Source: Clostridia bacterium | Lineage (GTDB): Bacteria > Bacillota > Clostridia > Christensenellales > UBA1242 | Assembly: GCA_017452165.1 (NCBI GenBank) | Contig: JAFTMY010000090.1 | Span: 1 to 51,542, forward strand | Direction of reading: 5' to 3' | Length of the DNA: 51,542 bases | Shown: one piece after another, positions 307 through 49,780 of the stretch | How the letters are laid out: each line of letters starts with the position of its first letter | Position numbering within the stretch: position 1 is the first letter of the stretch | The notes under the pieces: model-generated | What the model was told of the DNA's origin: nothing | What the model saw: the letters and a program-made list of their open reading frames with translations, nothing else | Databases searched by the model: none | Position numbers and translations under genes: made by a program

Positions 307-317
307 AAAACTCCTCC

Positions 318-1031
318 TTATTTCTTAATTTTTATATTTCTTGTTTCTGCCCATCTATCAATAATATCAAAAACATACTCTTCATTTACATCATTATTTT
401 CTACAATCTTTTTAAGTAGATCATTTGATGTTTTATAAGACTGCATAAGTTCATCAATACTTTTCTTTTCTTCTTTAAGTTTTACAACAATATTTTCACT
501 GCCATCTTTTATTGATTGAATCATTTTTGAATTTGATACTAAATTTTCAGCAATATCTTTATTAACAAAATCGCCTACTGCTTGAAGATTTGTATTATAA
601 CTTTCTAAACTTCTCTCAAGTTCCTTTAAGTTATAAGATTTTTTCTTTTCTTCAATTATATTTTCTAGTTTTGAAATTTGTGCTTCTGCCTTTGCTTCAA
701 TTTCATTTACAGATTTTATTCTTGTTTCAATACCTTCAAATGTTGAAATAAGTTTATCAACTTCTTCTGTATACTTGGTTGAACTACGCAAAAATTGATC
801 TACTTTTCTTGTAAGTTCTTCTGATTTTTGAGCCTGTTGTGCTAAACTTTTATGAATCTCATCAAGTTTCGCCTTAGCATCATCTGAAAAAGAGTTTGAT
901 AATTTTTCAATATCACCTTTAAGTGCTGTGTATGTTCCTAAAAACTCATTTAAATCAGACTGAATCGGAACGAGCATATCTCTATATCCTACAAATGCGT
1001 TAATAAGTGAATTAATCTCTTTATTCTCCAT
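318..1031 (-). CDS. coiled-coil protein of unknown function (237 aa)
   Basis: K/E/L-rich heptad-like sequence throughout. AAGGAG lies 9 nt upstream of the ATG. The ATG shares one base with the helicase stop (TAATG at 1031), which indicates translational coupling. Confidence 0.6.
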   Translation of the reverse strand: MENKEINSLINAFVGYRDMLVPIQSDLNEFLGTYTALKGDIEKLSNSFSDDAKAKLDEIHKSLAQQAQKSEELTRKVDQFLRSSTKYTEEVDKLISTFEGIETRIKSVNEIEAKAEAQISKLENIIEEKKKSYNLKELERSLESYNTNLQAVGDFVNKDIAENLVSNSKMIQSIKDGSENIVVKLKEEKKSIDELMQSYKTSNDLLKKIVENNDVNEEYVFDIIDRWAETRNIKIKK

Positions 1032-4457: not shown

Positions 4458-4677
4458 AATAACATAATAACAAATTTTGATTGATTATACAATTAATAAA
4501 AACATATTATCTCATAATTTATAATATTTAACATTTTTTTTAATAATATTTAATAACTTACATAATATTATTTCAATATTTTTTTAAAATATGGTATATT
4601 ATTATTGGAAATGTTATTTGTTAATCATTTTTTTATTAAAATTAATAGACATTTCAAACTAATATGGAGATGAAATT

Positions 4678-5640
4678 ATGAATTATACATTACTTGGTTG
4701 CGGTAGATGGGGCTCATTTATCGCTTGGTATTTAAACAAAAATAAAAATAATGTTACAGTATGGGGCCGCTCAGGAGACCCTATTGTGGAAAATTTACTT
4801 GCTACTCGCAAAAATGATTATGTTGAATTTCCTGAAGAAATTGAACTTACTACAGACTTAACTTATGCTCTTGGTAAAAGTGAATATATTATTATTTCAA
4901 TCAGTGCTCAAGCAGTTAGAAATTTAATGGAAAATGTTTCTAAGATTGAAGGTTATAAAGATAAAAAATTCATCTTATGTATGAAAGGAATTGAAGATAA
5001 GACCGGAGCAAGACTCTCAACTATTTTAATTGAATTTGGCGTTCCACAAGATAATATTGCTGTTTGGGTTGGACCTGGACACATTCAAGCATTTGTGGCA
5101 GGTGTTCCAAGTGTTATGGTTATTGATTCTTATAATCCAGACCTTTCCGAGCATTTAGCAAAAACTCTTCGTTCAGATCTTATTAGATTCTATCAAGGTC
5201 AAGATATTATTGGTTCAGAAATTGGTGCTGCTGCTAAAAACGTAATGGGCATTGCTGCTGGACTTTTAGATGGTTATAACTTTGCAACACTTAAAGGCGG
5301 ACTTATGGCAAGAGGTGCAAGAGAGATTTCGAGACTCATTAAAGCCTGTGGTGGAAATGAATTTTCTGCTTATGGACTTTGTCATCTTGGTGACTATGAG
5401 GCAACTCTATTTTCAAAATTTTCACACAATAGAATGTGGGGCGAAATGTTTGCAAAAGGCGAAAAATTTGAAAAACTTGCAGAAGGTGTAGCAACATCTT
5501 CAGCCCTTCTTCACATTGCAAAAAATGTTAATGTTGACTTACCTATCACACAAACAGTTTATGATATGATTCACGGAAACATATCAAAAGATGAAGCAAT
5601 TAAAAGATTATTTGCAAGAGATAATATTAGAGAATTTTAA
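4678..5640 (+). CDS. gpsA: NAD(P)H-dependent glycerol-3-phosphate dehydrogenase
   Basis: N-terminal Rossmann motif LGCGRWGSFIAWYL, plus GPGHIQAF, AAAKNVMGIAAG and GLCHLGDYEATLFS..SHNR. GGAGA RBS. Confidence 0.9.
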   Translation: MNYTLLGCGRWGSFIAWYLNKNKNNVTVWGRSGDPIVENLLATRKNDYVEFPEEIELTTDLTYALGKSEYIIISISAQAVRNLMENVSKIEGYKDKKFILCMKGIEDKTGARLSTILIEFGVPQDNIAVWVGPGHIQAFVAGVPSVMVIDSYNPDLSEHLAKTLRSDLIRFYQGQDIIGSEIGAAAKNVMGIAAGLLDGYNFATLKGGLMARGAREISRLIKACGGNEFSAYGLCHLGDYEATLFSKFSHNRMWGEMFAKGEKFEKLAEGVATSSALLHIAKNVNVDLPITQTVYDMIHGNISKDEAIKRLFARDNIREF

Positions 5641-5646
5641 TACAAA

Positions 5647-5688
5647 AAAAGATGTAATTTACAAAATTAAATTACATCTTTTTATTTT
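5647..5688 (+). terminator. rho-independent terminator after gpsA
   Basis: aaaagatgtaattt / aaattacatctttt inverted repeat followed by a T-run. Confidence 0.6.
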
Positions 5689-5855
5689 TATTTTACATAA
5701 ATTAAATATTTATTTTTATTATTTTATTTAATTTATTTTTCAATAAAAACAACATATTTTACCATTTTTTAGTAAAAATATGCTGTTTTTATATGTTTTT
5801 TATATAAATTTTATAAATTTTTGCGTTTTTTCAAAATTTAAGCAAGAGACAGTTT

Positions 5856-6584
5856 TTATTTGATTCTATAATTTATAAGTTTTTCTTTATCTTCTTTTGA
5901 CACTCTAAAACTATCTCTACATTTACAAATTGATTTATTTTGAGTGAATTTATCAAGCACTTTTTCATCTAATAATTTATAAGTTTTTTCTTTAAATTTT
6001 AAAAATCCATAACTAATTAGCCAAGCAATTCCCATTTGAACATAGTATGCTCTATTTGTCACACTTTTGCACATATTATAAATTTTATCTATATATTTTT
6101 CTTCTAAATAATAGGTCATTAATGTTACAATTCCAAATCTTGAGATAAACTCTTTTTCTGAAAAACATAGATTATAAAAGTAATCAAAATACTCGTCTTT
6201 TTTATCACTTTTTGCAAAAATTTTCATACTAGATACCACGCTATCAATGTGTGCCCAGCAATCAAATTTACACTTCAATTCATCTAATAATTTTATTTGA
6301 AGCCCTATATCTTTTATGTATGTTACTATTAAACCTTGAATTAAAATTTCCTCATAAGAGTCATCTTTTGCAAACTTTAAAAAATTATTTATATCAAACT
6401 TTGCTATATTTTTTGCAACCTTTCTAACATCAGCCATTGAAAGTGCAAGTATCTCTTTTTTTGAATTAATAATTCTTTTATGCCTCTCCCTATCTTCAAT
6501 CGACTCTTCTTTTGCAAGTGATTTTAAATAATCAACAAATTTAATATAATCGTTTTCACTTTTTATATTAAAATCAAAATTCAT
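5856..6584 (-). CDS. DNA alkylation repair protein (AlkD-like HEAT-repeat family)
   Basis: Pattern matches remembered AlkD-family blocks: DCWAHIDSVVSS (cf. WWDSVDS), EFISRFGIVTLM, YYVQMGIAWLISY. The start is 2 nt after the RSH stop, with GAGGTG as RBS, so the two are probably co-transcribed. Confidence 0.65.
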   Translation of the reverse strand: MNFDFNIKSENDYIKFVDYLKSLAKEESIEDRERHKRIINSKKEILALSMADVRKVAKNIAKFDINNFLKFAKDDSYEEILIQGLIVTYIKDIGLQIKLLDELKCKFDCWAHIDSVVSSMKIFAKSDKKDEYFDYFYNLCFSEKEFISRFGIVTLMTYYLEEKYIDKIYNMCKSVTNRAYYVQMGIAWLISYGFLKFKEKTYKLLDEKVLDKFTQNKSICKCRDSFRVSKEDKEKLINYRIK

Positions 6585-6586
6585 TA

Positions 6587-8683
6587 TTATTTCACCTCAT
6601 AAACAGACTTAAGTGAACTAAGTTTATTCTTAACTTGAATAAGTTGGTTTTTATCTCTAACCAAAACTCCAACTTTTAAAAGTAAATCACCTTCTTTATT
6701 TTGACTTGTGTTAAGTGATGCAAGTTTTACATTTAATCCACTTAGAACATTTGTTATTTCAAGATAAACATTGTTTGAGTTAAGAGCAACAAGGTCAATC
6801 ATTGCTGAGAAAGTAAAGTTCTCATTATCTTGATAATTCCAATTAACTTTTATAAATCTTGATTCAGGAAGTTTAGGCACATTTTCGCAAGTCTTTTTAT
6901 GAATAATAATACCCCTACCTCTTGAAACATAACCAACAATTTCATCTCCTGGAATTGGATTACAACACTTACAATACTGAGTAAGCGTTCCCTCAGCCCC
7001 AATAATATCCGTTTTTGCTTCAAATTTAACTGGATTTTTATTTATTTCTTCTAATACATTTCTGTTCTTTTGTTCTTCAAGATGCTTTAAGTTTAAAAGT
7101 CTATTGACAAACTTTTCAGCAGTCATCGAACCATAACCAATCGCAGCATAAAGTTCATCAAGTGCTAAAAATGCGTTTCTTTTTAAAATAATTTCAATCC
7201 ACTCATCTTTCATAATTGAAGAAAGCGCAACATCACAAGATTTTGCGTGTTGTTCAACCATACTTTTTCCAAGTTTAATATTTTCTTCCTTCATTTGCTT
7301 TTTATAGAAACTATTAATCTTGTCTTTTGTAGATTGCATTTTTACAATTTTAAGCCAGTCTCTTGATGGTCCTTTTGAAGTTGTCGATGTTAAAATTTCA
7401 ACCACATCACCATTAGAAAGTGGAGATACAAGTGGAACCATAAGACCATTTACCCTCGCACCTACGCAGTGATTACCAACATCTGTATGAATTGCGTAAG
7501 CAAAGTCAATAGGTGTTGCATTTTCTAAAAGTTTTATAACCTTACCTTTTGGAGTTTGAACAAAAATTTCACCAAGATAAACATCAGTTTTAAGTTCTTC
7601 TAAAAGTCTATCAGACGATACACTATCTTTATTTTCCAAAAGTTTTCTAATCCATAAAAGTTTGTTGTCAAGTTTTGCAAGAGACCTTTTATGCTCTTTA
7701 TATAAAAAGTGAGCAGCGACACCATACTCAGCAAATTCATGCATATCATGAGTTCTAATTTGAACTTCAAAAAATTCATTTTCATAATAAACTGTTGAGT
7801 GAAGTGACTTATAGCCATTTGGTTTTGGGTGTGCAATATAATCTTTAAATCTTCCATCAACTGGGAAAAAGTTTGCGTGAATAATACCAAGAACTAAGTA
7901 ACACTCTGAAACAGAGTTTACTAAAATTCTAATCGCTGTTATATCATAGATACTTTTAAGCGAAATATTTTTGCTTCTAATTTTATTATGGATACTAGAT
8001 AAGTGCTTTACTCTTCCGTAACACTTACAATCAATATTGTTTGATTCCATAAGTTTTTTAGTGTTTGAAACAACTGTTTCAAGCATTTCATTGCTAGAAC
8101 GAGATTCATTTTTTAATTCTTCTTCAAGTTTTTTGTAAGTTTCTGGTTCATGAAACTCAAAAGATAAATCTTGAAATTCAGATTTAATTTCACTAAGTCC
8201 AAGTCTTGCAGAGATTGGTGCAAAGATATCATCAATCGCCTTAAACTTTTTTATAGAAACTTCATCATTATAATTTTTGACATTTTTTCTAGCAAAGACA
8301 AGCATTTCTGCACTTTTTATAATGATTACTCTTATATCTTTAGTGATAGCAAGAAGCATCTCTTTAAGTCCATCGGCATCGGTATAATTAGTGGAAAGTT
8401 CCTCACATTTAATAAGCATATTAAGAAGCATTAAAAGTTCTTTATCATCACTACCAACTTCTTCAAATGTTAATTTATTCTCTTTTATAAATGGAAAAAG
8501 TAATCCTGCGCAAACACTTTTTTCATCTAATTTTAAGCCAATAATAATTTTTAAAATTTCTTCACAGTCTTTAATTAGTTCTTTTTCTTCTGAAAATCTT
8601 TCACCAATAAGACTATTTATTTTAACAATTCTATCAACTTCTTCTTTTTTATATTTTGATTCTAAAAATGATTTATCAATCAT
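6587..8683 (-). CDS. relA: long RelA/SpoT homologue, (p)ppGpp synthetase with a degenerate hydrolase domain
   Basis: Synthetase motifs are intact: RVKHLSSIHNKI, YDITAIRILV, RFKDYIAHPKPNGYKSLHSTV, EVQIRTHDMHEFAEYGVAAHFLYKE. TGS domain (PKGKVIKLLENATPIDFAYAIHTDVGNHCVGARVNG), CCNPIPGDEIVGYVSRGRGIIIH and a C-terminal ACT-like region are present. The HD residues are replaced (see finding). Confidence 0.9.
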   Translation of the reverse strand: MIDKSFLESKYKKEEVDRIVKINSLIGERFSEEKELIKDCEEILKIIIGLKLDEKSVCAGLLFPFIKENKLTFEEVGSDDKELLMLLNMLIKCEELSTNYTDADGLKEMLLAITKDIRVIIIKSAEMLVFARKNVKNYNDEVSIKKFKAIDDIFAPISARLGLSEIKSEFQDLSFEFHEPETYKKLEEELKNESRSSNEMLETVVSNTKKLMESNNIDCKCYGRVKHLSSIHNKIRSKNISLKSIYDITAIRILVNSVSECYLVLGIIHANFFPVDGRFKDYIAHPKPNGYKSLHSTVYYENEFFEVQIRTHDMHEFAEYGVAAHFLYKEHKRSLAKLDNKLLWIRKLLENKDSVSSDRLLEELKTDVYLGEIFVQTPKGKVIKLLENATPIDFAYAIHTDVGNHCVGARVNGLMVPLVSPLSNGDVVEILTSTTSKGPSRDWLKIVKMQSTKDKINSFYKKQMKEENIKLGKSMVEQHAKSCDVALSSIMKDEWIEIILKRNAFLALDELYAAIGYGSMTAEKFVNRLLNLKHLEEQKNRNVLEEINKNPVKFEAKTDIIGAEGTLTQYCKCCNPIPGDEIVGYVSRGRGIIIHKKTCENVPKLPESRFIKVNWNYQDNENFTFSAMIDLVALNSNNVYLEITNVLSGLNVKLASLNTSQNKEGDLLLKVGVLVRDKNQLIQVKNKLSSLKSVYEVK

Positions 8684-9001
8684 AATAACTCCTATTTTGT
8701 ATATACTACTAGCAACTTTATTATACTATAAACTAACAAAACTGAAAAGCAAAATTAACAATAATAATTATTTTTAAATTAATCCAATTATTAAATATAT
8801 TTTTAGTTATTTTATTTTTATTTGATATATGTAAAAAAATTTGATACAATATTAATAAATTAAATAAAATAATATTATTGATTATTTATTTTTTGCAAAA
8901 AAGTTGCATTATTCTTGTTTTATTGCCAAATTTTTAATAATATTCTAATATTTTTGCACTTTTTTAAAAATTTTAACTACAAGATTTAAAGGAGAAAAAT
9001 T

Positions 9002-9649
9002 ATGTATAACCCAAATTATGAAATTACAGATGATATTATAAATGTTACAATTAATATAAATTCACATAGTTCAATTCAAATAGATGATATGTTTTTTGAC
9101 CCATTTGAAATTAAAGATGTTACAAAAAAAGCAAAATATATTTTTGTATCTCACACCCACTATGACCACCTAAGCATTGAAGATATAAAAAAGGTTATGA
9201 CTGATGAAACTATTTTTATTGCAACAGAAGATGCTAAAGAAAAATTAGAAGATTTTGAAAATAAAATCATCTATGTTAAGCCAAATGAAAAACACTCTCT
9301 TGATGAATTTGAATTTGAAACTTTCCCATCATATAATCTTAATAAAAATTTCCATAAAAAAGAAAATAACTGGGTTGGTTATAAGGTAATTAAAAATGGT
9401 GTTAGTTACGCCGTTTTAGGTGACACCGATGCAACCCCTGAACTAGAAAAATTAGAGTGTGATATTTTATTTATTCCTGTTGGTGGAACTTATACAATGA
9501 CTGCAAAAGAAGCCGCAACACTTACTAATATTATAAAACCACAAATCGCTATTCCTACTCACTATGGCTCAATCGTTGGTGTTTCTAATGATGCTAAAAT
9601 TTTTGCTAATAACTTAGATGAAGACATTGTTTGCAAAACATTTATTTAA
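9002..9649 (+). CDS. MBL-fold metallo-hydrolase
   Basis: HxHxDH motif (FVSHTHYDHLS), later GDTD and PTHYG. AAGGAGA RBS. Confidence 0.8.
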   Translation: MYNPNYEITDDIINVTININSHSSIQIDDMFFDPFEIKDVTKKAKYIFVSHTHYDHLSIEDIKKVMTDETIFIATEDAKEKLEDFENKIIYVKPNEKHSLDEFEFETFPSYNLNKNFHKKENNWVGYKVIKNGVSYAVLGDTDATPELEKLECDILFIPVGGTYTMTAKEAATLTNIIKPQIAIPTHYGSIVGVSNDAKIFANNLDEDIVCKTFI

Positions 9650-9679
9650 TTTTAATCTATATAAAACTACAAAAAAAAA

Positions 9680-9705
9680 CAGATACTAATTTATCTGTTT
9701 TTTTT
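9680..9705. terminator. bidirectional terminator hairpin between convergent genes
   Basis: cagata-ctaatt-tatctg stem-loop with an A-run upstream and a T-run downstream. Confidence 0.5.
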
Positions 9706-10147
9706 ATTTTGCATCTTTAATTTTTATTTTTCTTTTTATAATAAAGAATATAATTTGATAAAAACCACATATAACAAGTATTGGTAAATTTACTAAATTT
9801 GCCCACCCATTATTTTTTATTAAATCTAAGCAATTTTTTATTTTTTCTGCAAAACCACCATTAATTACTATGAAATTACTAATAAAAATGTATAAATAAT
9901 AATAAACAATGTAAATTTCCAATACAAAGCATAAATATAAAAAGTATAAACTTATTGCATATTTTAAACTTACATTAGAATATTTACGCAAATAAAATAT
10001 ATAAATTATTTGATAAATAATTGCAATAATAAATATTAATAATACAAGGTCTGCCGACCATCTTGCAGAAATATACGGTCTAGCGATTAGAATAAAAAAA
10101 TATGTAATAAATGATAATAAAAATATTAAACTATATTTTTTATTCAT
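9704..10147 (-). CDS. small integral membrane protein (about 4 TM), unknown function
   Basis: Hydrophobic segments throughout. AAGGAAG RBS. Confidence 0.55.
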   Translation of the reverse strand: MNKKYSLIFLLSFITYFFILIARPYISARWSADLVLLIFIIAIIYQIIYIFYLRKYSNVSLKYAISLYFLYLCFVLEIYIVYYYLYIFISNFIVINGGFAEKIKNCLDLIKNNGWANLVNLPILVICGFYQIIFFIIKRKIKIKDAK

Positions 10148-10185
10148 AAGTTCTTCCTTAATTTTCTTTTATTGATATAAGTTTA

Positions 10186-11241
10186 TTAACTTTGAATAAC
10201 CATATATAAAAATACAATAATCGCTATAATAAATAAGAACTTAAATAATCCACCAAAGAACTTAGCAGGAGTTTTTGGCGATGCACCGATAACCTTTCCA
10301 GTAGTTCCACTTACATAAATTTTCTCTGTTTTTTTATTTTTTCTTGTATAAGTATAAACATATACAGGAATATATGTAAAGTTGAAAAATACATCGTTTG
10401 CTCTACTATCAACACTAAGATTAGAAATTTCCTTATATGAACTTAAAACTTTTTTCTTGATTTCTTCTTTCATTTCAAGTTCTGCCTTTTCAATAACTGT
10501 ATAATAGTAGTCATGAATACTTCTATCAATAGTATCTACTTGGTAACCATAAGTATATTCTGGTGTGTAAGGAATAATTGAATTATAATCTTCTTCTGAA
10601 AATAATTTTAAGAATTCTTCTGATTCGTGTGATGTTGCAGATTGGTCTAACGATTTAATTCTCTTATGCTTTTCACCATAAACTGGTTTATAAACACTAT
10701 AATATGTTCCGTCAGAATATTGCTTTAAAACAGTTGCACTCGCTGAGTATGTTGCATCAATATTAAATTGAAAATTCCATACAGGAACAAATACACCATT
10801 TAACAACTTCTTCTCTTTTGCTTCTTTTTTAGCCTGCGCAGACATACCCTTATTCTTTCTTAAATATTTAACAAATTCAGCTGTCGCTTTTTCTTTATCA
10901 ATTTTAAAAGGAATAATACCATCTGCACAATATCCTGGGTCTTCAACAATAGTGCTTGAAATTAAACCACAGTTAGGACATTTTTCAGACTTTTCTTCAC
11001 TAGACATATAATATTTAGTTTTACAAGCATTACACTCATAAGTTCTAAGTGATTGGTTTAACTGATTTGGGTGAAAACTAGCACTATATTGTCTAACTAA
11101 AACTGCCTTTTCATTTTTCTTAGGCAAGAAAACATTTGACTGGCAATATTTGCAAGTCAAACACATAAGTTGTGTATTATACACAAGTTCACTGCCACAA
11201 TTTTGGCATTTTGCATTTAAAATATTCGAATTCATTTCCAT
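10186..11241 (-). CDS. double zinc-ribbon protein with a C-terminal membrane anchor
   Basis: CQNCGS..x..CKYCQS and CNACKT..x..CPNCG pairs. C-terminal TM segment FFGGLFKFLFIIAIIVFLYMVI. Family not named with confidence. Confidence 0.7.
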   Translation of the reverse strand: MEMNSNILNAKCQNCGSELVYNTQLMCLTCKYCQSNVFLPKKNEKAVLVRQYSASFHPNQLNQSLRTYECNACKTKYYMSSEEKSEKCPNCGLISSTIVEDPGYCADGIIPFKIDKEKATAEFVKYLRKNKGMSAQAKKEAKEKKLLNGVFVPVWNFQFNIDATYSASATVLKQYSDGTYYSVYKPVYGEKHKRIKSLDQSATSHESEEFLKLFSEEDYNSIIPYTPEYTYGYQVDTIDRSIHDYYYTVIEKAELEMKEEIKKKVLSSYKEISNLSVDSRANDVFFNFTYIPVYVYTYTRKNKKTEKIYVSGTTGKVIGASPKTPAKFFGGLFKFLFIIAIIVFLYMVIQS

Positions 11242-11433
11242 AATACCTTTATTTTATATCATTTTTATTTTTTATGCAATAAAATATTATAATTTTATTA
11301 TAATTTTATGGTTAAGATTTACAATTACCTATCAATTTTATTGTTTTTATTCATTCAAAATCTAAGTTTTTACTTGATAATAAAACTGTTTTTATTATAT
11401 AATAATAAAAAAGCGTATTATGAGGTAATTATT

Positions 11434-14217
11434 ATGAATAATGAACAACAGTCTAATGTTTCTCCACAAGAAAAATGGAACCAAGTAGCAAGAGATGGAA
11501 ATTTTACTTATTATACTATGCAACGAATACCACAAGAGTTTCAAACACAAGAATTATGGCAAGCATTTGCAAGAGAAAATAACTATGATGTATACTCTTG
11601 TAAATCTGTTCCTGAAAAGTTTCAAACTCAAGAAATGTGGAATAATGCATTCCATAATATCTCAATATCTAGATGCCACCCTTGTAGTTTAAAAAGAATC
11701 CCTGCAAGATTTCAAACTCAAGAAATGTGGAATAGACTTGTAAAAAGTAATAAACTAGAATCTTATGAACTTAGCCAAGTTCCACAAGAATTCCAAACAC
11801 AAGAAATGTGGGATAGTTTTGTTAGAAATACATCTTATAAAGAAATTCGAGAAATTCCTCGCCAGTTTCAAACACAGGAGATGTGGGATAGTTTTGCTAG
11901 GCAAACTACAAATATAAATGATTTAAGCAATATTCCTTTAAGACATCAAACACAAGAAATGTGGAACAGTTTTGCTAGACAAACTACAAGAACTTATGAT
12001 TTAGACAGAATTCCAATACAATTTCAAACACAAGAAATGTGGGATAGAGCATTTAAGTCTCTTAATTTAACTAGTCTTTTTAGTTTGAATTCTATACCTG
12101 AAAGATTCCAAACAAAAGAAATGTGGCAGGATTTTGCTAAGAGTGTAAACTATGCTAATTATCAATTAGAAAATATACCTAAACAATTCCAAACAAGAGA
12201 AATGTGGCAAGAATTTGCAATGAATAATAATTTTAATATTTATTCGCTATCAAGAATTCCTGTTGAATTTCAAAGTCAAGAGATGTGGCAAACAGCAATT
12301 AATAATGTGCCAGATAAAGAATTTAATATATTTAAAGTAAATGATATCCCTAGACAATATCAAACTCAACAAATTTGGGATAGGCTTGCAAAGACATCAA
12401 AATATAAAAGCCACGTTTTATCTAAAATTCCAACTGAGTTTCAAACACAGGAAATGTGGGATAACTTTGCTAAATCAAATAATTACGCATCTTATGATAT
12501 GTCTAATATTCCAGCAGCATTTCAAAACCAAGAAATGTGGAATGCTTTCGCTTTAAATAATAAATTTGAATCTTATTTTTTAAAAAAGATTCCTGAGAAA
12601 TTCCAAACAAAGGGAATGTGGGATAAATCTGTTCAAAGTGAAAATTTTGCCAATACTTATGATGTTCCAGAAAAATATCAAACTCAAGAAATGTGGATCG
12701 AATATGTAAAATTTTATAAATTTAATGTAAAACCATCTGCTATTCCTGATAAGTTTAGAAAGCAAGTTGTTGAACTTATGGACCAAGAACAGAAAAAAGT
12801 AAAAAACCAAAAAGTTGATGAAATTCATCTTGAAACTGTTGAAAATTTAAAGCGTTTTATCTCAAACAATGCTATGAAATCTCCAGAAACTCAAAAAAAG
12901 TTCGAAGCATTTTTAAAAATGTCAAAAGAAGAACAAATCGTTAATATGGATAAATTTTATTGTCTTGCTAGAAGAGATTTCTTAATGATAAATGGAGAAT
13001 TAAATAGAGAAAATTATACAGATAATATAATTGAAATTATAAAATCATCATCTGATATTTTAATCGATACTCATATTTCAATCGAAAAGCAAGTAGAACA
13101 AAAAAATCCTAATGCTATTAAGTATTTTATCCAAAGAAAAAATGTATTAAAAGGACAACTTGAAAAAATAGCACAAAACAAAAGTTTATCACCAACTCAA
13201 TCTAAAAATATTAAACTTTTACTTGCTAGATTAAACTTAGCCTCAAAAACTATAACATCTTCAAATATGAAATTAGAAGATGTTAACAATAAATATCCTT
13301 TTAAATTAGAAGAAGCGCCACCTAAGGAACAAACAGTTATTGAAAACAACATTACAAAATCTGAACAAAAACCTAATGAACAATCACAAATAGAAACTGA
13401 AACTGTAAAAAATAGTGAACAGCCTACCGTTGTAAAAACTGAACCTGTAAAGCATGGCGAAAAAACTCAAGTTGTTACTCAACCTGTTAAAAAGAATGAA
13501 CAACCTACAAAAGTTAATCTTGAGTCTAAACCTAAAACTAACACTAATGCCGTTAAACCTAAGGCTCAACCTACCGTTGTAAAAACTGAACCTGTAAAAC
13601 ATGGCGAAAAAACTCAAGTTGTTACTCAACCTGTTAAAAAGAACGAGCAACCTACAAAAGTTAATCTTGAAGCGAAGGCTAACGAAAATCCACAACTTAA
13701 AGCAATTGTTGGAACTGAAAATTCTGCCGAATTTAATCAGTTACTCCAAAACTTCACATCAATTCATGCAAGTTATTATGATGGCGTAAAAGGAACAAAA
13801 GGTCATGCTCACACACAAGAAGAAATACAAACAAAAATGGCAATTAATAAGAAAATGAAAAAGATTTTAGAAAGCAAATCTCAAAATCTTGCAAATCTTG
13901 AAAATGATGAACAATCAAAGCAAAATCTTTTTTCACAAATTTCTAATCCAGTAAATGAAATTGACATTGAAGAAGTTGCTTCAAATGAAGGTGCTTTTTT
14001 AAGACTTTTAAGCATAATGTCTAATGGTGTTTATGAGAAAAATGGTGTTAGAACTAGACTTACAATGAAACAAAGAACAGCACTTGCAAATGTTATGGTA
14101 AAAGTTTCAGAAAAACGACTTGCAAAAGAAAATACTGCCAAGAAAACTGCTAATTCAAATAAAGATAAATCAAAAATCAATCAAAATGATTTAGAAAATG
14201 CTGGTCGCCAATTATAA
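11434..14217 (+). CDS. large repeat protein (927 aa): about 15 tandem 25-33 aa IPxxFQTQEMW repeats, a helical middle region and a K/Q/P/T-rich repeat tail
   Basis: The track ORF starts at 11308, but GAGGT lies 7 nt before the ATG at 11434 (MNNEQQSNV). The upstream 42 codons are low-complexity. No signal peptide seen. Confidence 0.8.
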   Translation: MNNEQQSNVSPQEKWNQVARDGNFTYYTMQRIPQEFQTQELWQAFARENNYDVYSCKSVPEKFQTQEMWNNAFHNISISRCHPCSLKRIPARFQTQEMWNRLVKSNKLESYELSQVPQEFQTQEMWDSFVRNTSYKEIREIPRQFQTQEMWDSFARQTTNINDLSNIPLRHQTQEMWNSFARQTTRTYDLDRIPIQFQTQEMWDRAFKSLNLTSLFSLNSIPERFQTKEMWQDFAKSVNYANYQLENIPKQFQTREMWQEFAMNNNFNIYSLSRIPVEFQSQEMWQTAINNVPDKEFNIFKVNDIPRQYQTQQIWDRLAKTSKYKSHVLSKIPTEFQTQEMWDNFAKSNNYASYDMSNIPAAFQNQEMWNAFALNNKFESYFLKKIPEKFQTKGMWDKSVQSENFANTYDVPEKYQTQEMWIEYVKFYKFNVKPSAIPDKFRKQVVELMDQEQKKVKNQKVDEIHLETVENLKRFISNNAMKSPETQKKFEAFLKMSKEEQIVNMDKFYCLARRDFLMINGELNRENYTDNIIEIIKSSSDILIDTHISIEKQVEQKNPNAIKYFIQRKNVLKGQLEKIAQNKSLSPTQSKNIKLLLARLNLASKTITSSNMKLEDVNNKYPFKLEEAPPKEQTVIENNITKSEQKPNEQSQIETETVKNSEQPTVVKTEPVKHGEKTQVVTQPVKKNEQPTKVNLESKPKTNTNAVKPKAQPTVVKTEPVKHGEKTQVVTQPVKKNEQPTKVNLEAKANENPQLKAIVGTENSAEFNQLLQNFTSIHASYYDGVKGTKGHAHTQEEIQTKMAINKKMKKILESKSQNLANLENDEQSKQNLFSQISNPVNEIDIEEVASNEGAFLRLLSIMSNGVYEKNGVRTRLTMKQRTALANVMVKVSEKRLAKENTAKKTANSNKDKSKINQNDLENAGRQL
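11470..12770 (+). repeat. in-frame tandem array encoding the (I/V)Pxx(F/Y)QTQEMWxxFAxxxxYxxYxLxx repeat
   Basis: FQTQEMW-type cores recur about 15 times, for example at ~11620, 11710, 11791 and 11866. Spacing varies from 75 to 99 nt. The last cores are at ~12670 and ~12745. Confidence 0.75.
13420..13671 (+). repeat. two near-identical ~105-bp segments, 147 bp apart, encoding QPTVVKTEPVKHGEKTQVVTQPVKKNEQPTKVNLE
   Basis: Copy 1 is 13420-13524 and copy 2 is 13567-13671, with only a few substitutions. Confidence 0.85.
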
Positions 14218-14245
14218 TTTGTAAAAATAATTAAATTTATTACAA

Positions 14246-14281
14246 CAAAAAAAATGGAAGAACAATTCTTCCATTTTTTTA
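14246..14281. terminator. bidirectional terminator
   Basis: atggaagaa-caa-ttcttccat hairpin (14254-14274) with an A-run before and a T-run after, between convergent genes. Confidence 0.7.
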
Positions 14282-14325
14282 TTTATTTTATCTATTAGAT
14301 ATATTTTTTATGTTTAATTCTTTAA

Positions 14326-15702
14326 TTAAGCACCTTGAGCAAGTCCAACATTTTCAATTTCTCTCTTGTTTTGATTTGCTCTTGCTTTTTGTTGAACTGC
14401 ACCTTGTCTATTTCTTGCGTTTTCTTCTTCAAGTTTTTTATCCATCGCTGTAAGTTCTTTTAAAATTGTTGCTGAGTCATATTTTTGAACTACTACTGTT
14501 GTAAGTTTTGATTCAAGTTTTGCAGTATCGAAGTTAAATTCTCCCACCATTTTTCTATCATTAATACATTCATTTCCATAAACTTGGAACACATCTTCAA
14601 GTAGTTTACTTGAAAGTGTTTGGATTAAATTAATGATATTTTCTTCTCTTTGAGATGCTGGTTTATAAGGTGGTTTATTTGCATCATTAAAGTTTTTATT
14701 CCAATTCATAACTGGTTTAAAGCACTCATCTTTTTTAATTTTTAAAGTGCTTAAAACTTGTTGAGCAATATGGTTTCTTGCCATACTCTCTATTCTTCTA
14801 CCTTCTGCAAAATATTCAGCAGATGCAATTCTTTGACCTTTTTTAATTCCAAGACCTCTAATTTCAACAGGAGGTTTTGGTTTACCATTTTCATCAAGTT
14901 CTCTTTCAGTTGTAAAGCATCTGCACTCATCAAACCACTCTGGGTGTTCTTGGGTAAGTGCGAGATATGTTTCCATAGGACCATTACCACAATTTACAAT
15001 TACATCATCAGGGAGCATTCTTGGTGCTTCGCCTTTTTCAATAAAACCTTGACATCTTGAGATATTTCTTTGTCTACTTGTGTTATTTGAAACATGAACA
15101 AGATCCATTGTAACACTATAACCACTATTTCTAGCATCAGTTATAAGTGTTTCCATCCAACCGATTTCATCACCAACTTTTTCTTGAATAAAGTTTACCT
15201 TTTTTTCTTGTAACTTTTTAACTAAATCTCTAAAAATATTACCACCTGCTGGGTGAATATCTGGGTGATTGATATCAATATTATAAAATTTAGCAACATC
15301 TTCTTTTACTGCGTCCATATTAGCATGATACGCTCTAAGTTGCTTTTTTAACGCATTAATAGTTGTTGTTTTACCAGCACCTGCAAGACCCATTACAAAC
15401 GCCATTTTTGAACTGCTAGCAAGTTCACCTGTCTTCATTTTGTTTGTAATATCAGCCATTGTATTAGTAATATACTGATCTTTAAATGCTTTGAATTTTG
15501 GACTATTTGTATCAACAACAGAACTTGTCGAAACTCTACTTAATCTATTAGCCTCAGCCTTAGTCATATTATACTTTTCAGCAATTTGTTCTTCTGAAAG
15601 TTGAGGTCCTTTTCCCATAATGATATAACAATCTGGTGGTGGGACTCTGCTCATAACTTCGCTAAGTTGCTCTTTTGATAATCTTGCTGAATAATCTGCC
15701 AT
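14326..15702 (-). CDS. zeta-toxin-like P-loop kinase-fold protein with N- and C-terminal extensions (458 aa)
   Basis: Walker A MGLAGAGKTT. The following NMDAVKED...HPDIHP and GYSVTMDLVHVSNNTSRQRNISR resemble zeta/PezT blocks as I remember them. I prefer the ATG at 15702 (MADYSARL), which has GGGGGA about 8 nt upstream and lies 1 nt after the upstream TAG stop. GC is visibly higher than in neighbouring genes. Confidence 0.6.
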   Translation of the reverse strand: MADYSARLSKEQLSEVMSRVPPPDCYIIMGKGPQLSEEQIAEKYNMTKAEANRLSRVSTSSVVDTNSPKFKAFKDQYITNTMADITNKMKTGELASSSKMAFVMGLAGAGKTTTINALKKQLRAYHANMDAVKEDVAKFYNIDINHPDIHPAGGNIFRDLVKKLQEKKVNFIQEKVGDEIGWMETLITDARNSGYSVTMDLVHVSNNTSRQRNISRCQGFIEKGEAPRMLPDDVIVNCGNGPMETYLALTQEHPEWFDECRCFTTERELDENGKPKPPVEIRGLGIKKGQRIASAEYFAEGRRIESMARNHIAQQVLSTLKIKKDECFKPVMNWNKNFNDANKPPYKPASQREENIINLIQTLSSKLLEDVFQVYGNECINDRKMVGEFNFDTAKLESKLTTVVVQKYDSATILKELTAMDKKLEEENARNRQGAVQQKARANQNKREIENVGLAQGA

Positions 15703-15703
15703 A

Positions 15704-16204
15704 CTATCTATCCCCCATTTCAAAACCCGAATGCATCATTTGTTTTTCATATTCACTAAATTGATTTTTATTAAATCCAAAATGAGCAACCGCTTGTTCG
15801 CCTGTTACTTGTTTATTTTTCACAAGGTCATTTGCTTTTCTAAGGTCCTCGACTTTTAAACCCTTAACATATTTTCTAAGGTCTTCTTTTGACATTACAT
15901 ATTGAAAAAATGCAAGTGGGTCGTCAAAATTTTTCCAAGCAGAAATGAAATCACTTTTAATTTCAATAACTGCAATATCATCAATATAATTTTGAACTTG
16001 CTCTTTTACCATTTCAGTAAAATCTTTACTATCGAGTTTTTCATCAATAGCACCACTTTCAAAAGTCTTATAAAGACCTGCATTTGATGATGACACCATT
16101 TCTAAAAAATAGTCTGGAAAAATTCTAAAGAAATCCACATAATTTGATAAAACTTCGTTTGCATTTTCATAAGCCACACCATATTTTTTGCTTGATTTAT
16201 CCAT
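15704..16204 (-). CDS. hypothetical protein (166 aa), upstream partner of the zeta-like gene
   Basis: GGAGGT lies 8 nt before the ATG at 16204 (MDKSSKKYG). Ends in TAG, 1 nt before the next start. No family recognised. Confidence 0.6.
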   Translation of the reverse strand: MDKSSKKYGVAYENANEVLSNYVDFFRIFPDYFLEMVSSSNAGLYKTFESGAIDEKLDSKDFTEMVKEQVQNYIDDIAVIEIKSDFISAWKNFDDPLAFFQYVMSKEDLRKYVKGLKVEDLRKANDLVKNKQVTGEQAVAHFGFNKNQFSEYEKQMMHSGFEMGDR

Positions 16205-16303
16205 AAATGCACCTACCTCCACAATAATTTTAATTTTTATTTACTCTATTTTATAATATTTTAAATCATAATGCAATATTATATTTGAATTTTACAAAAA
16301 TAG

Positions 16304-16338
16304 TAAAAAAAATCACACTTTTTCAGTGTGATTTTTTA
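16304..16338 (-). terminator. terminator after the ABC exporter operon
   Basis: atcacact-ttttc-agtgtgat hairpin flanked by A/T runs. Confidence 0.65.
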
Positions 16339-16354
16339 ATTACAATACCTATTT

Positions 16355-18190
16355 TTATTCAATAACATCTGCACCATCAAGAGAAAATTGACTATTATAA
16401 AGGTCTGCATAAAAACCATTTTTCTCAATAAGGTCTTCGTGGTTTCCTGACTCAATTACATCACCATCTTTTAAAACTAAAATAAGGTCAGCATTTTTAA
16501 TAGTAGAGAGTCTATGAGCAATAACAAAACTTGTTCTACCAATAGTGAGTTTATCCATTGCTTCTTGAATTAATACTTCAGTTCTTGTATCAACATTACT
16601 TGTTGCTTCGTCTAAAATAAGCATTGGGGTATTTTGAAGCATTGCACGAGCGATAGTTAAAAGTTGTTTTTGACCAACTGAAACATTTGTTTCATCAGAT
16701 AAGACTGTATCGTATCCATGTGGAAGAGTTTTAATGAAGTGATCAAGACCACAAGCCTTGCAAGCCCTATCTAAATCCTCATCAGTTACACCTTGCATAT
16801 TATAAACTAAATTTTCTCTAATTGTTCCTTCAAATAGCCAAGTATCTTGAAGAACCATTGAGAAAATTTCTCTAAGTTGACTTCTTGTCATATCATGAAT
16901 TGACACACCATCAATTAAAATTTTACCACTATTAATTTCATAGAATCTCATAAGAAGATTAACTATTGTGGTTTTTCCTGCACCTGTTGGACCAACTATT
17001 GCGATTTTTTGACCAGCCTTAATTTCAGCCGAGAAATTATGAATAATCTCTCTATCTTCGTCATAACCAAACTTAACATTTTGAATAGATACGTTGCCTT
17101 CGATTTTTGGAAGTGTGATATTTTTATGACTTTCATCAGAAATTTCTTCTTCATCAATAAAGCCAAATACTCTATCGCTAGCCGCTGCTGTTGTTTGAAT
17201 TGTTGCCATTGCTTGAGAAATTTGCTCAAGTGGTCTTGTAAATAATCTAATATAAATCATAAATGCAGTAATAACACCAATATCAACCTTGCCTTTTATA
17301 AGTAAAACTGCACCAATGATACAAACCACTACATAACCAAAGTTTCCGATAAACGCCATAAATGGGTGCATTACACCAGAAATAAATTGTGCCTTCCAAC
17401 CACTTTCATAGAGTTTATCATTTACTTTTTCAAACTTTTCTTTAAATTCTTCTTTAGCATTATAAGTCTTAATAACTGCTTGTCCTGAATAAGATTCTTC
17501 AATAACACCATTTAATTGAGCAAGTTTATTTTGTTGTGAAACAAAATATTTTTGAGATTTTTTCATAATGAGTGACATTGCAAAAAATCCAATAGCAGTT
17601 GTGCAAACTGCAGCAATAGCCATTATCCAGTTAGTAATAAGCATCATTAAAAGCGAACCTAAAAACATTACAACTGAACCAATAAGAGTTCCAACACTAT
17701 TAAAGAGTGTATCACCAATAATATCAACATCATTAGTAATTGTGCTAAGAACATCACCATAAGGTGTTCTATCTAATTTTTTAAGTGGAAGTTTATTTAT
17801 TTTTGCATTAATATCAGAGCGAAGTTTTTGATTCATTTTAAACACTACTCTTGCAATAATAATGTTTGCAATATAACTAAACAACGAACCTAAAACATAA
17901 AGCACTATAAGTAAAATTACAATTTCCCAAACTTGAGACATTTCATAAGCAATACCTGGGAAAATCATAACACCATTTTCAAAAACAGGAATTGCAGAGA
18001 TTATTATTCTTGTAATATCTGCAAGTTTATCTGGTCCCATAATTCTAAAAATAGTATTTGCAATTAATAAAACTATTGAAATCATTAAAATTGGTATATA
18101 AGGTTTTAAGAACTTTAAAAGTCTACCAAGTGATTTTTTAACATCAACTTTTTTGCCTTTTCCGTTCATATTTTTATCCATCTTAGGCAT
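16355..18190 (-). CDS. ABC exporter, fused permease/ATPase (heterodimer subunit 2)
   Basis: Six-TM N-terminal half. GPTGAGKTT, VSVGQKQLLTIARA, LILDEATSNVD, AHRLST. I prefer the ATG at 18190 (MPKMDKN), which has AAGGAGG upstream and overlaps the upstream stop (ATGCCTAA). Confidence 0.9.
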   Translation of the reverse strand: MPKMDKNMNGKGKKVDVKKSLGRLLKFLKPYIPILMISIVLLIANTIFRIMGPDKLADITRIIISAIPVFENGVMIFPGIAYEMSQVWEIVILLIVLYVLGSLFSYIANIIIARVVFKMNQKLRSDINAKINKLPLKKLDRTPYGDVLSTITNDVDIIGDTLFNSVGTLIGSVVMFLGSLLMMLITNWIMAIAAVCTTAIGFFAMSLIMKKSQKYFVSQQNKLAQLNGVIEESYSGQAVIKTYNAKEEFKEKFEKVNDKLYESGWKAQFISGVMHPFMAFIGNFGYVVVCIIGAVLLIKGKVDIGVITAFMIYIRLFTRPLEQISQAMATIQTTAAASDRVFGFIDEEEISDESHKNITLPKIEGNVSIQNVKFGYDEDREIIHNFSAEIKAGQKIAIVGPTGAGKTTIVNLLMRFYEINSGKILIDGVSIHDMTRSQLREIFSMVLQDTWLFEGTIRENLVYNMQGVTDEDLDRACKACGLDHFIKTLPHGYDTVLSDETNVSVGQKQLLTIARAMLQNTPMLILDEATSNVDTRTEVLIQEAMDKLTIGRTSFVIAHRLSTIKNADLILVLKDGDVIESGNHEDLIEKNGFYADLYNSQFSLDGADVIE

Positions 18191-47582: not shown

Positions 47583-47590
47583 AATTTACC

Positions 47591-47900
47591 TCCGATATAA
47601 TAATCTATTTAATGATAAATTTTCGATAAATCAAAAATTTATTAAATTCTAACGAATTAGATACTGCCGTATCTCATTACAGATTGAAATAACCATCAGT
47701 TATTAGAAAATAGTTCTTCGAACTATTTTCCTCTAACTTCCGATATAATAATCTATTTAATGATAAATTTTCGATAAATCAAAAATTTATTAAATTCTAA
47801 CGAATTAGATACTGCCGTATCTCATTACAGATTGAAATAACCATCAGTTATTGGAAAATAGTTCTTCGAACTGTTTTCCAATAACTTCCGATATTATAAT
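47591..47900 (-). repeat. 148-bp tandem repeat, 2 full copies plus a 14-bp partial third copy, in the leader of the flavin-reductase/rubredoxin gene
   Basis: Copy 1 is 47591-47738 and copy 2 is 47739-47886, with 4 differences. The partial copy is 47887-47900. Each copy holds four consecutive hairpins and a GATAAAT-N4-GATAAAT direct repeat. Copy 1 ends in the gene's SD. Confidence 0.9.
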
Positions 47901-47927
47901 TTTATCAAAACTAAAAACATAAGTCAA
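47899..47927 (-). promoter_or_regulatory. putative strong sigma-A promoter driving the repeat-containing leader
   Basis: On the minus strand: TTGACT (47927-22), exactly 17 nt of spacer, TAAAAT (47904-47899). The predicted transcription start is near 47892, at the partial third repeat copy. Confidence 0.5.
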
Positions 47928-48016
47928 TTTTATATATAATTCACAACTTAAAATATAGAAAATTCTAATTTTAGCAAAATTTTTTAAAATTTCGGCATTT
48001 TTTACTACTTTTTACA

Positions 48017-49780
48017 CTATAAACATTCTACTTTTGCACTTTTTTCTTCCATCTCATATAATTCTTTATACTCATTACAGTTTTGCATCAACTCTTTATG
48101 TGTTCCAAAGTTTATAACTTTTCCGTCATCAATCATATAAATTTTATCTGCTCCAATTATAGTAGATAGTCTATGTGCAACAATAATAATTGTCTTGTCA
48201 TTTTTTAAACTTTCTAAAAGTTTTACTATTTCATTTTGACTATTATTATCAAGCGCACTTGTTGCTTCATCAAAAACAATAACCTTTCCACTACTAAGGA
48301 GAAGCCTTGCAATAGCAATTCTTTGTTTTTGACCGCCTGAAACCTTAACACCATTTTCTCCAATTTCAGTATCAAGTCCATTTTCCATTTTCAAAATATC
48401 ATCATAAATTTGTGCTTTTTTCAAAACCTCAATCATCTCTTCTTCGCTTGCATCAGGTTTTGCAAAAAATAGGTTTTGTCTAATACTTGCATTAAATATA
48501 TATGGTGATTGAGAAATCTCTCCAACATTTCCTCTTATGCTTGACTCTGTCAAAGTGTTTATATCTTTTCCATCAAGAAATATTTGACCATCACCCGTTT
48601 CATATAACTTTGAAATTAAATTCAAAATTGTAGTTTTTCCACTACCACTTTTTCCAACAATAGCAGTCATTTTATTAGGTTCAAACTTTAAACTAAGATT
48701 TTTTAAAACAGGAATATTATTTGAATATGAGTAGTTTACATTTTTAAATTCAATATTTCCAGAAAACTCGCTAAGTGTATCCGTTCCATATTGTTCCTTT
48801 TCAAAATCATCTACAATTTCAAATATTCTAACTGCAGCAATTTCGCCTTCAGCATTATATTCATTAAAAGAAGATAAATAATTAACCAGCCACTCAACTT
48901 TTCCATAATAGTTAAAGATTACTAAAAAACCTGCAAGTAAAATAAATTCTTTTTTGATAAAATAAATACCAATTAGCATAAATGATAATTCAAAAATTGC
49001 AGTGATTAACCTTTGAACTCTTCTAAGAAGATTTCTTTTATCCGTAATACTAATATCAAGATTTGCTGCCTCTTCAAACTTTCCATTTGCATAGTTTGTA
49101 ACGCTCTCTTTCATATTAAGTAATTTTACATCTCTAATTCCTGTTATTTGCTGATAATATATAGACTTTGCTTCTTCATTTGCTTTTTTCGTTAATTTTT
49201 TTCCTCTTATCCAAACTCTGCTTCTAATTGTGCAAATAATATATAGAACCACAACATATCCTATTAAAATTAAAAATAGATAAATATTAAGATAAGCAAT
49301 ATAAATTAAAAATACAGCATTAGTAAGTATATCAAAAATTAAATTCATCATATCAAGATATGAGTCGCTAACACTTTTTACATCACTAGATAATCTCTCT
49401 GAAAGCATACCAAGTTTTACTGAATCAAGTTTGTTCATTTTTGTTCGGTTAATTGAGTCTATAATAGTTTTTGTAAGTTCAACTTTTGTTCTTGTGTTAA
49501 TTCTAGTATAAAATACTTCAACAAAGTAGTTAACAATTATTTTACCTAACACAAGTCCCGTCATAATAAGTGCATACTTTTTTGCATTATCAAAATCTTC
49601 AGACGCAAGACTAGCGAGTGCATTTGCTGAGAATATTGGACTAAATATACCAAGCACACCACCCATCACCATAGCAATAAGAAGTGCAACTAAAAGACCT
49701 TTACTCTTTTTATAGTAAGGAAGAACCTTCCTTATTTTATGAGTTGTAACCTTTTTCTTTTTTAAATCTAATTTTTCCAT
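48017..49780 (-). CDS. ABC exporter, fused permease/ATPase (probable homodimer)
   Basis: GKSGSGKTT, VSGGQKQRIAIARL, IVFDEATSALD, AHRLST. Six-TM N-terminal half. TAG stop. Confidence 0.9.
   Translation of the reverse strand: MEKLDLKKKKVTTHKIRKVLPYYKKSKGLLVALLIAMVMGGVLGIFSPIFSANALASLASEDFDNAKKYALIMTGLVLGKIIVNYFVEVFYTRINTRTKVELTKTIIDSINRTKMNKLDSVKLGMLSERLSSDVKSVSDSYLDMMNLIFDILTNAVFLIYIAYLNIYLFLILIGYVVVLYIICTIRSRVWIRGKKLTKKANEEAKSIYYQQITGIRDVKLLNMKESVTNYANGKFEEAANLDISITDKRNLLRRVQRLITAIFELSFMLIGIYFIKKEFILLAGFLVIFNYYGKVEWLVNYLSSFNEYNAEGEIAAVRIFEIVDDFEKEQYGTDTLSEFSGNIEFKNVNYSYSNNIPVLKNLSLKFEPNKMTAIVGKSGSGKTTILNLISKLYETGDGQIFLDGKDINTLTESSIRGNVGEISQSPYIFNASIRQNLFFAKPDASEEEMIEVLKKAQIYDDILKMENGLDTEIGENGVKVSGGQKQRIAIARLLLSSGKVIVFDEATSALDNNSQNEIVKLLESLKNDKTIIIVAHRLSTIIGADKIYMIDDGKVINFGTHKELMQNCNEYKELYEMEEKSAKVECL

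Follow-up and report, generated by a model that had tools for sequence, protein, structure and literature searches.

What purpose, if any, is served by a tandemly repeated, highly structured element between a promoter and the ribosome binding site (RBS) of a predicted redox gene? The question arises in a 51,542-nt stretch of DNA from an uncultured Clostridia bacterium (contig JAFTMY010000090.1 of assembly GCA_017452165.1; hereafter, the window). In this window, a gene encoding a flavin reductase-like domain fused to rubredoxin-like zinc ribbons is separated from an upstream ABC-transporter gene by a 434-bp spacer, both genes being on the minus strand. The original prediction was that the repeats in this spacer constitute a tandem cis-regulatory RNA or regulator-binding array for the redox gene, with a small repeat element that inserted and duplicated as the fallback. 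The results described below, namely dispersal and local duplication, point to the fallback. Specifically, the repeated unit is probably a non-autonomous mobile or recombining repeat, belonging to a family of ~150-bp structured intergenic repeats of small-genome, low-GC, uncultured Clostridia. This repeat family is previously undescribed.

Distribution of the repeat unit

Analysis with Tandem Repeats Finder revealed a period of 148 bp at 47591-47900 (2.1 head-to-tail copies, 96% matches, 0 indels), in agreement with the two full copies recognized originally. Alignment of the copies confirmed that they differ at 4 positions, each in or beside the long 3' hairpin. The two copies, units a and b, share 97% identity, and neither shares more than 91% with any other copy in the genome. 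Since each window unit has the other as its closest relative, the pair appears to be the product of local duplication or conversion after one insertion.

The unit was found throughout the window's own genome (G000; 2.02 Mb, 27.8% GC, 177 contigs). Using BLAST, nhmmer, and two covariance models, we identified 22-27 copies at ~18 loci on 16 contigs. All of these copies are intergenic, in arrays of 1-3 units: contig C126 carries three, and contigs C78, C102, C94, and C176 carry two. Five loci are at contig ends; thus, the repeat breaks the assembly. Taking copies of the family together, the neighboring genes are unrelated housekeeping genes, and orientation with respect to them is mixed. With co-directional neighbors, 24 copies are in the same sense and 15 in the opposite sense; a further 14 copies lie between divergent genes and 8 between convergent genes, always in intergenic positions. 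The window element is read antisense, the rarer orientation relative to a gene. The estimated contamination of G000 is 6.2%, and the 20 genomes of the same genus are 0.7-1.6 Mb in size; this metagenome-assembled genome (MAG) may be a mixture or may carry an unusual amount of accessory DNA.

Orthologs of the 251-aa gene occur in 12 of the 20 congeners, at 37-58% amino-acid identity. At none of the nine orthologous loci examined can a unit be seen, and their upstream gaps measure 9-262 bp, as compared to 434 bp in the window. An ABC-transporter homolog directly precedes the flavin-reductase gene in four congeners, with a gap of 11-175 bp. Once the units are taken out, the window sequence reads TTGACT-17-TAAAAT-TATAAT/ATCGGAGGTAAATT-ATG, a compact promoter and RBS of ordinary form. 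The unit's presence beside unrelated genes, at ~18 loci here and in many other genomes, its occurrence in either orientation, and its absence from the orthologous loci of congeners argue against the proposal of a regulatory array devoted to the redox gene. Searching for the unit elsewhere in the genome and in relatives, the check suggested originally, thus revealed a dispersed element rather than a locus-specific leader.

A plain sequence search of 40 relatives returned no match. Using a covariance model, 1 of the 20 genomes in the genus was found to have 4 diverged solo copies, at loci other than the flavin-reductase locus. In the same bacterial family, the element was detected in 31 of 150 genomes using model R1 (described below) and in 38 of 150, representing 26 of 58 genera, using model R2. 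Covariance searches also detected it in 2 of 145 genomes from other families of the order and in none of a class-wide sample of ~145 genomes. The large searches were based on 20 scored candidates per genome (144 in the genus search), and several family genomes saturated all 20. Within genera of the family, the distribution is patchy. Copy-rich genomes include one of 1.1 Mb with 31 copies and one of 1.3 Mb with 18. An exact pattern for the G000-type core had 0 matches in genome contigs, 0 in metagenome contigs, and 1 in a viral collection, the latter a provirus-labelled piece from a related species. The family-consensus core matched 42 metagenome contigs and 0 viral contigs.

In one genome of the family (G083, contig C11, positions 1-17000; locus L145), nine units occupy five intergenic spaces within 15 kb of housekeeping genes (DegV-like, MscL-like, and radical-SAM-like). 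One of the arrays is immediately upstream of a SAM riboswitch (6543-6631, minus strand).

Structure and covariation of the unit

The true phase of the unit is TATAAT...CCGATAT followed by TATAAT: in solo copies the hexamer is present at either end, and adjacent units of an array have one in common. On the plus strand, helix P1 closes hairpins A, B, and C to form a four-way junction, followed by a linker, the long hairpin E, and a tail, ACTTCCGATAA + TATAAW. The hairpins are sub-terminal: A begins ~16 nt from the 5' end and E stops 8-14 nt from the 3' end. The minimum free energy (MFE) fold of one unit has the same structure.

Copies of the unit differ by evident compensatory changes. Among 12 close copies, 95% of positions were paired as compared to 34-44% when the partners were slid. 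A covariance model built from these copies, R1, gathered 76 distinct copies from more than 20 genomes. In this larger set, 92.2% of cells were paired versus 33-42% with partners slid, and 48 of the 51 pairs had changes on both sides. The covariation score was 0.516 as compared to 0.152 in shuffles, and was reached by 0 of 500 shuffles. The 76-copy alignment was fitted to the model and is hence biased toward the structure; many pairs nevertheless have 3-4 pair types in large numbers. By helix, the paired fraction was 93.7% for P1, 90% for A, 93.6% for B, and 90-97% for C, with double changes in nearly all pairs. In hairpin E, an A.C mismatch and a T.G wobble are conserved across the family; the window copies have full pairs instead.

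These data modify the hairpins originally described. Three of the four, 47645-58, 47659-74, and 47706-30, are real and conserved; the fourth, 47688-47704, was 38-89% paired with no compensation. Competition had been proposed between the long stem and this neighboring hairpin. Of the two, it is the base of hairpin E, AGTTR/YAACT, that covaries, with 95-99% pairing; its supposed competitor is not conserved. A direct repeat, GATAAAT-N4-GATAAAT, is part of the 12-bp AT hairpin A (47615-47642), whose loop varies among copies, and is hence incidental. A long-range helix, TAATCT..TGTAATG with CATTACA..AGATTG, had been overlooked; it encloses the first three hairpins. Finally, absence from homologous loci together with a lack of covariation had been named as grounds for rejecting a structured leader. 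The homologous loci indeed lack the unit, but the dispersed copies covary very strongly.

Leaving aside two conserved wobbles and one conserved A.C, there were 74 G.U departures versus 75 A.C departures. Because these are equal, the fold is not visibly tied to one RNA strand. The symmetry fits selection on a fold available to either DNA strand, not one RNA strand. The counts were also considered as a means of assigning the strand, for which, being symmetric, they are uninformative.

Several copies depart from the canonical organization. On contig C101 of G000 (3539-3640; L081), P1 and hairpins A, B, and C occur alone, without the long hairpin, and are closed by a GC-extended helix, GGGCTGTGAT...ATCACAGCCC. 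This junction-only copy suggests a modular unit whose two halves can be separated. Just upstream of the array on contig C102 (~11705-11750; L034) is a remnant comprising only the ends, with the 5' end TATAATCTAT running straight into the 3' end TTCCCTCTAACTTCCGATATTATAAT, as though a unit had lost everything in between. A distinctive variant, with CAGCCTCACCCTTGCAAGCAAGTTCGGCT in place of the long hairpin, occurs as a single copy in each of three genera (L115 in G043, L117 in G168, and L121 in G119), and the flanking genes of these copies differ.

Turnover and spread of units

In metagenome strains with 95% identical flanks, loci differ by exactly one canonical unit. The breakpoint is at the TATAAT boundary, beside older degenerate units. 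In a second strain pair, with 97% identical flanks, there are 2 units versus 1; the 3' half is common to both units, and the 5' halves differ with full compensation. In one of the strain comparisons, the additional unit does not resemble the one beside it. A tree of 75 copies placed 11 dispersed copies from genome G178 and 17 from G083 in compact clades specific to each genome, their terminal branches being close to zero in length. The near-identical dispersed copies of G178 appear to represent a recent amplification. Genomes G080 and G125 contain several subfamilies interleaved with copies from other genera.

A unit was also found between the terminator and RBS of a gene for a serine recombinase of the invertase type (~195 aa), which shows ~90% identity among three genera (G058, G140, and G165). 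More distant invertase homologs (G078 and G121) have no unit. Units thus travel with mobile modules, the invertase case being best read as one of hitch-hiking. At the three loci (L219, G140:C42, 1-820; L220, G165:C6, 2160-2990; L120, G058:C16), AAGGTACACCTTT, a terminator, and one unit precede the invertase gene. The palindromic AAGGTACACCTTT is a candidate crossover site. The 4-kb contig G140:C42 has inverted units at both ends and also carries a NUDIX-like gene and a gene for a 522-aa surface-protein-like product; it may be an invertible or mobile cassette.

The window locus

The features of the locus are summarized in Table 1. The sigma-70-like site noted originally was the best in the region. 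It is in unique flank DNA immediately outside the array and is likely the native promoter of the flavin-reductase/rubredoxin gene. As had also been observed, the repeats reach the gene's GGAGG: the gene-proximal end of the array continues into ATATCGGAGGTAAATT-ATG. The ACCTCCGATAT piece at this end may be a third-unit remnant or a chance likeness. The predicted leader of 324 nt folds far more stably than shuffled sequences (z = -8.8), and no terminator-like site was predicted in the window spacer region.

Table 1. Features of the window locus and of the two repeat units
Feature	Position	Strand	Details
Flavin reductase-like domain fused to rubredoxin-like zinc ribbons, 251 aa	46827..47582	-	PF01613, 3.7e-23; PF21349, 2.1e-16
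ACCTCCGATAT	47588..47598	+	Resembles unit tail (ACTTCCGATAT); complement provides the gene's GGAGG RBS; seen at no other locus
Unit a, gene-proximal	47599..47746	+	153.1 bits to model R1
Four-way junction, unit a	47601..47686	+	Same in single-sequence MFE fold; pair counts
Helix P1, unit a	47601-06 with 47681-86; 47609-14 with 47675-80	+	Encloses hairpins A, B, and C
Hairpins of unit a	A 47615-42; B 47645-58; C 47659-74	+	
Unpaired conserved linker, unit a	47687..47697	+	GAAATAACCATC here; family consensus GAATWAACATC; invariant columns
Long 3' hairpin E, unit a	47698..47738	+	Base AGTTA/TAACT covaries; middle GGAAA/TTTCC; top AGTTC/GAACT
Conserved unit tail, TCCGATAT	47739..47746	+	With preceding AAC and next hexamer, family consensus AACTTCCGATAA-TATAAW
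Unit b, promoter-proximal	47747..47894	+	161.7 bits to model R1; parts as in unit a, shifted by 148
Long hairpin, unit b	47846-47886	+	4 substitutions give a nearly perfect ~20-bp stem
Terminal TATAAT	47895..47900	+	Closes array; same hexamer opens every unit and is common to tandem neighbors
Sigma-70-like promoter, TTGACT-17-TAAAAT	47899..47927	-	TG before -10; 10/12 matches, best in region
ABC transporter, membrane and ATPase domains, 587 aa; upstream gene	48017..49780	-	

We also considered whether the tandem duplication is an assembly artefact, with one real unit at the locus. A same-strain 54-kb scaffold (L100; ENA ERZ28654584 scaffold_1370) is 100% identical to the window on both sides and has a 100-N gap (2190-2289) within the array, corresponding to window positions ~47794-47797, and contigs from two other assemblies (L101 and L102) end within the unit. 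The gap and these breaks are what an artefact might produce. However, the window units can be told apart at 4 positions, the family commonly forms tandem arrays in many other genomes, and independent assemblies show the unit beside the gene. Because both unit variants occur in the independent scaffold L100, each on its own unique flank, at least two units at this locus are real. An artefact is accordingly extremely unlikely. More generally, repeats of this family systematically disrupt the assembly of these MAGs, as in the N gap of L100 and the unit-terminated ends of L101 and L102.

Candidate identities and partner enzymes

The element was compared to established classes. [quoted passage not shown] Derivation as a MITE from a parent insertion sequence was rejected: partial copies are truncations and not the ends of larger elements. 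With respect to Xer/dif, the unit junction agrees with the 28-bp Firmicutes dif consensus at 20 positions; ~50 genomic sites score at least 20/28, so that this likeness does not exceed chance. ARAGORN found no tRNA or tmRNA, which eliminated a tRNA-derived origin. Searches of Rfam 15 were negative both for the window region, at a cutoff of E <= 10, and for 14 unit-bearing loci from other genomes, at gathering scores. Finally, the possibility that each unit has its own promoter was rejected: -35 hexamers occur upstream of the 5' TATAAW in 20% of cases versus 18% at control sites (p = 0.70). Because there is no such excess, the units are not obviously independent genes.

An IS200/IS605 or RAYT partner was likewise discounted. 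The sole Y1 gene of G000, which is of the IS200 type (contig C176, 2596-2952; L050), is 2.3 kb from the C176 array, has GC-rich and unrelated end hairpins, and contains an in-frame TGA exactly at a conserved Trp (NREF*CKGYYVDSVG). Y1 genes with an in-frame TGA also occur in G141 and G110. These genes are either decaying copies or were acquired from an organism or phage in which TGA encodes Trp.

Interpretation of the repeat

We propose that a single unit was inserted into the narrow interval separating the -10 box from the RBS of the flavin-reductase/rubredoxin gene and was then duplicated locally. The gene would now have a very stable leader of ~310 nt, in the sense opposite to the element's commoner orientation. 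In this proposal, a trans-acting enzyme would recognize a folded single strand of the element and not sequence alone. Integration would occur at TATAAW-like sites, by preference at the boundary of an existing unit, giving rise to head-to-tail arrays, and recombination between units would generate unit-length gains and losses. Any effect on the gene, whether through leader structure or Shine-Dalgarno-like GGAAG/AGAGGAAA motifs, would be a by-product of the insertion and not a dedicated redox switch. The mechanism of mobility and the target-site rule are inferences.

Several observations weigh against a mobile or recombining repeat. We could not link the element to any transposase or recombinase. 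Y1 (PF01797) occurs in 22 of 151 genomes, none of them copy-rich (G078, G080, G083, G103, G125, G140, G148, G153, G165, G170, and G178); IS110 (PF01548) and Rep_1 (PF01446) occur in 4 and 6 of the 151 genomes, respectively, and neither is present in copy-rich genomes. TnpB was not found in G000, the sole genome searched for it. A serine recombinase partner was rejected: resolvase genes do not track the element, and the G078 and G121 invertase homologs are without a unit. The element has no terminal inverted repeats; its ends, TATAAWCTATGTGATG... and ...AACTTCCGATAATATAAW, are in direct rather than inverted orientation. The indels detected between strains are all within arrays, where recombination between units explains them equally well. 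TATAAW is present at both ends of solo copies, but the comparisons yielded no clean empty site showing a target duplication; the loci of G178 and its congener G080 used in this search were too diverged, with synteny lost. Absences in the large searches mean "not found" and not "absent," given the few scored candidates. Moreover, units are 75-89% identical at the nucleotide level between two congeneric species versus 64-72% for flanking genes, which suggests purifying selection or recent transfer. Finally, intrinsic terminators are found after the unit more often on one strand (15 of 54) than on the other (4 of 54), an asymmetry that hints at an RNA context.

This last asymmetry, the conservation above the level of genes, and the conserved unpaired motifs may keep an RNA-level role alive. 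One such possibility is that the units encode a structured RNA in many copies, whether as small RNA genes or as transcript modules acting in stability, processing, termination, or translation, and possibly in the self-processing of array transcripts to RNAs of unit length, whose DNA copies spread since the RNA is useful or self-propagating. The covariation in 48 of 51 pairs, the unpaired linker and tail, the A.C/U.G imperfection of hairpin E, and the greater conservation of units than of neighboring genes between species are all consistent with this, as are the placement of the terminators (within 40 nt on the unit-sense side) and the -10-like TATAAW that opens every unit. The nearest analog, bcr1, is moreover transcribed, with a fold kept by compensatory changes (PMC3184786). 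However, G.U pairs are not in excess of A.C on either strand, -35 hexamers are not enriched, most copies lack a terminator, orientation to neighboring genes is mixed, occurrence among sister genomes is patchy, and Rfam contains no match. Overall, we consider a multi-copy RNA unlikely. A related and similarly unlikely possibility is a new class of structured nucleic acid that is itself active. In RNA form, an array transcript would be cut at ...CUUCCGAUAA/UAUAAW, yielding unit-length molecules by self-cleavage or by a dedicated nuclease. In single-stranded DNA form, the unit would be the substrate of a new recombinase family, propagating it in ~1-Mb genomes devoid of all the transposase classes tested. 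The unpaired linker, the tail, and the invariant A.C/U.G imperfection of the long hairpin would then form the core for activity or recognition.

The unit might instead serve the host as a DNA structural element in the manner of bacterial interspersed mosaic element (BIME)/REP clusters, with extrudable hairpins bound by nucleoid, gyrase, or replication proteins and maintained by selection and recombination without transposition. Symmetric G.U/A.C departures, free orientation, strictly intergenic arrays, the lack of a transposase partner, and conservation above that of neighboring genes would all be expected of such an element. Nevertheless, three quarters of the family's genomes and 19 of the 20 congeners do without it, its near-identical dispersed copies point to recent bursts, and there is no candidate binding protein; this role is improbable. 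The proposal of a locus-specific leader, riboswitch-like or an operator array of the PerR/Rex type, draws on the position of the array exactly between promoter and RBS, its very stable fold, and the redox function of the gene. It is largely refuted by the dispersal of the unit and its absence from orthologous loci: the same unit stands, in both orientations, beside housekeeping genes that are unrelated to one another, the rarer, antisense orientation is that of the window copy, the GATAAAT repeat is a variable hairpin loop region and not a conserved operator, and no Rfam family matches. Such a leader is therefore highly improbable.

If the ~300-nt "leader" is an inserted repeat, as we favor, then the gene's regulation should not be read from it. 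The fold, which occurs in reduced genomes of gut Clostridia that have none of the transposases tested, is among the best supported for bacterial interspersed repeats (51 pairs, 48 covarying, 26 genera) and enables a search for the enzyme or function that recognizes a four-way-junction substrate. The covariance model can be used to annotate MAGs in which the repeats break assemblies at contig ends and N gaps, and the variable-number tandem arrays are possible strain markers.

Comparison with known repeats

The family is notable for combining a four-way-junction fold in reduced genomes, exact head-to-tail arrays, and no recognizable partner enzyme. REP/BIME and REPIN-RAYT sequences are 20-40 bp and GC-rich, with a GTAG/CGTC tag and a Y1 (RAYT) transposase gene (PMC3733652). 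Like REP/BIME, the element forms extragenic hairpin arrays with conserved stem imperfections and a fold conserved rather than a sequence; unlike them, it is ~150 bp, AT-rich, and has five helices, and copy-rich genomes have no Y1 gene. Mycobacterial interspersed repetitive units (MIRUs) occur at dispersed intergenic loci as a variable number of exact head-to-tail units whose copy number differs between strains, as here. MIRUs are 46-101 bp, within operons, and have short overlapping reading frames. They are not known to have a covarying multi-helix fold.

The pneumococcal BOX, RUP, and SPRITE elements are small interspersed intergenic repeats with stable predicted folds that alter neighboring transcripts from leaders or 3' regions (PMC3049150; PMC3184786). 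RUP has terminal inverted repeats and a TA duplication, unlike the element described here, which is without such inverted repeats, and SPRITE is terminator-like, whereas no terminator was predicted here. BOX resembles our element in having modular, tandemly repeated sub-units. In BOX, however, the arrangement is A-(B)n-C and only the 45-bp boxB repeats; here, the whole 148-bp unit does.

Judged by analogy, BOX and bcr1 appear to be closest in kind, with bcr1 the nearest described analog. In the Bacillus cereus group, bcr1 is a transcribed, intergenic, interspersed repeat of ~155 bp (Okstad 2004; Klevan 2007, as summarized in PMC3184786). It has short direct repeats at both ends, a 5-bp duplication, a "cruciform-like" multi-hairpin fold with compensatory changes, and no transposase of its own; it is reported from this group only, and its genomic distribution is not conserved between related strains (PMC3184786). 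Compared by description, the two share an interspersed ~150-bp unit in Firmicutes, a compensated fold, and short flanking direct repeats. Their reported host ranges are separate, and they differ in that the element described here is bounded by TATAAW, occurs in one family of uncultured small-genome Clostridia (plus 2 of 145 genomes elsewhere in the order), and combines a four-way junction with a separate long hairpin in exact head-to-tail arrays.

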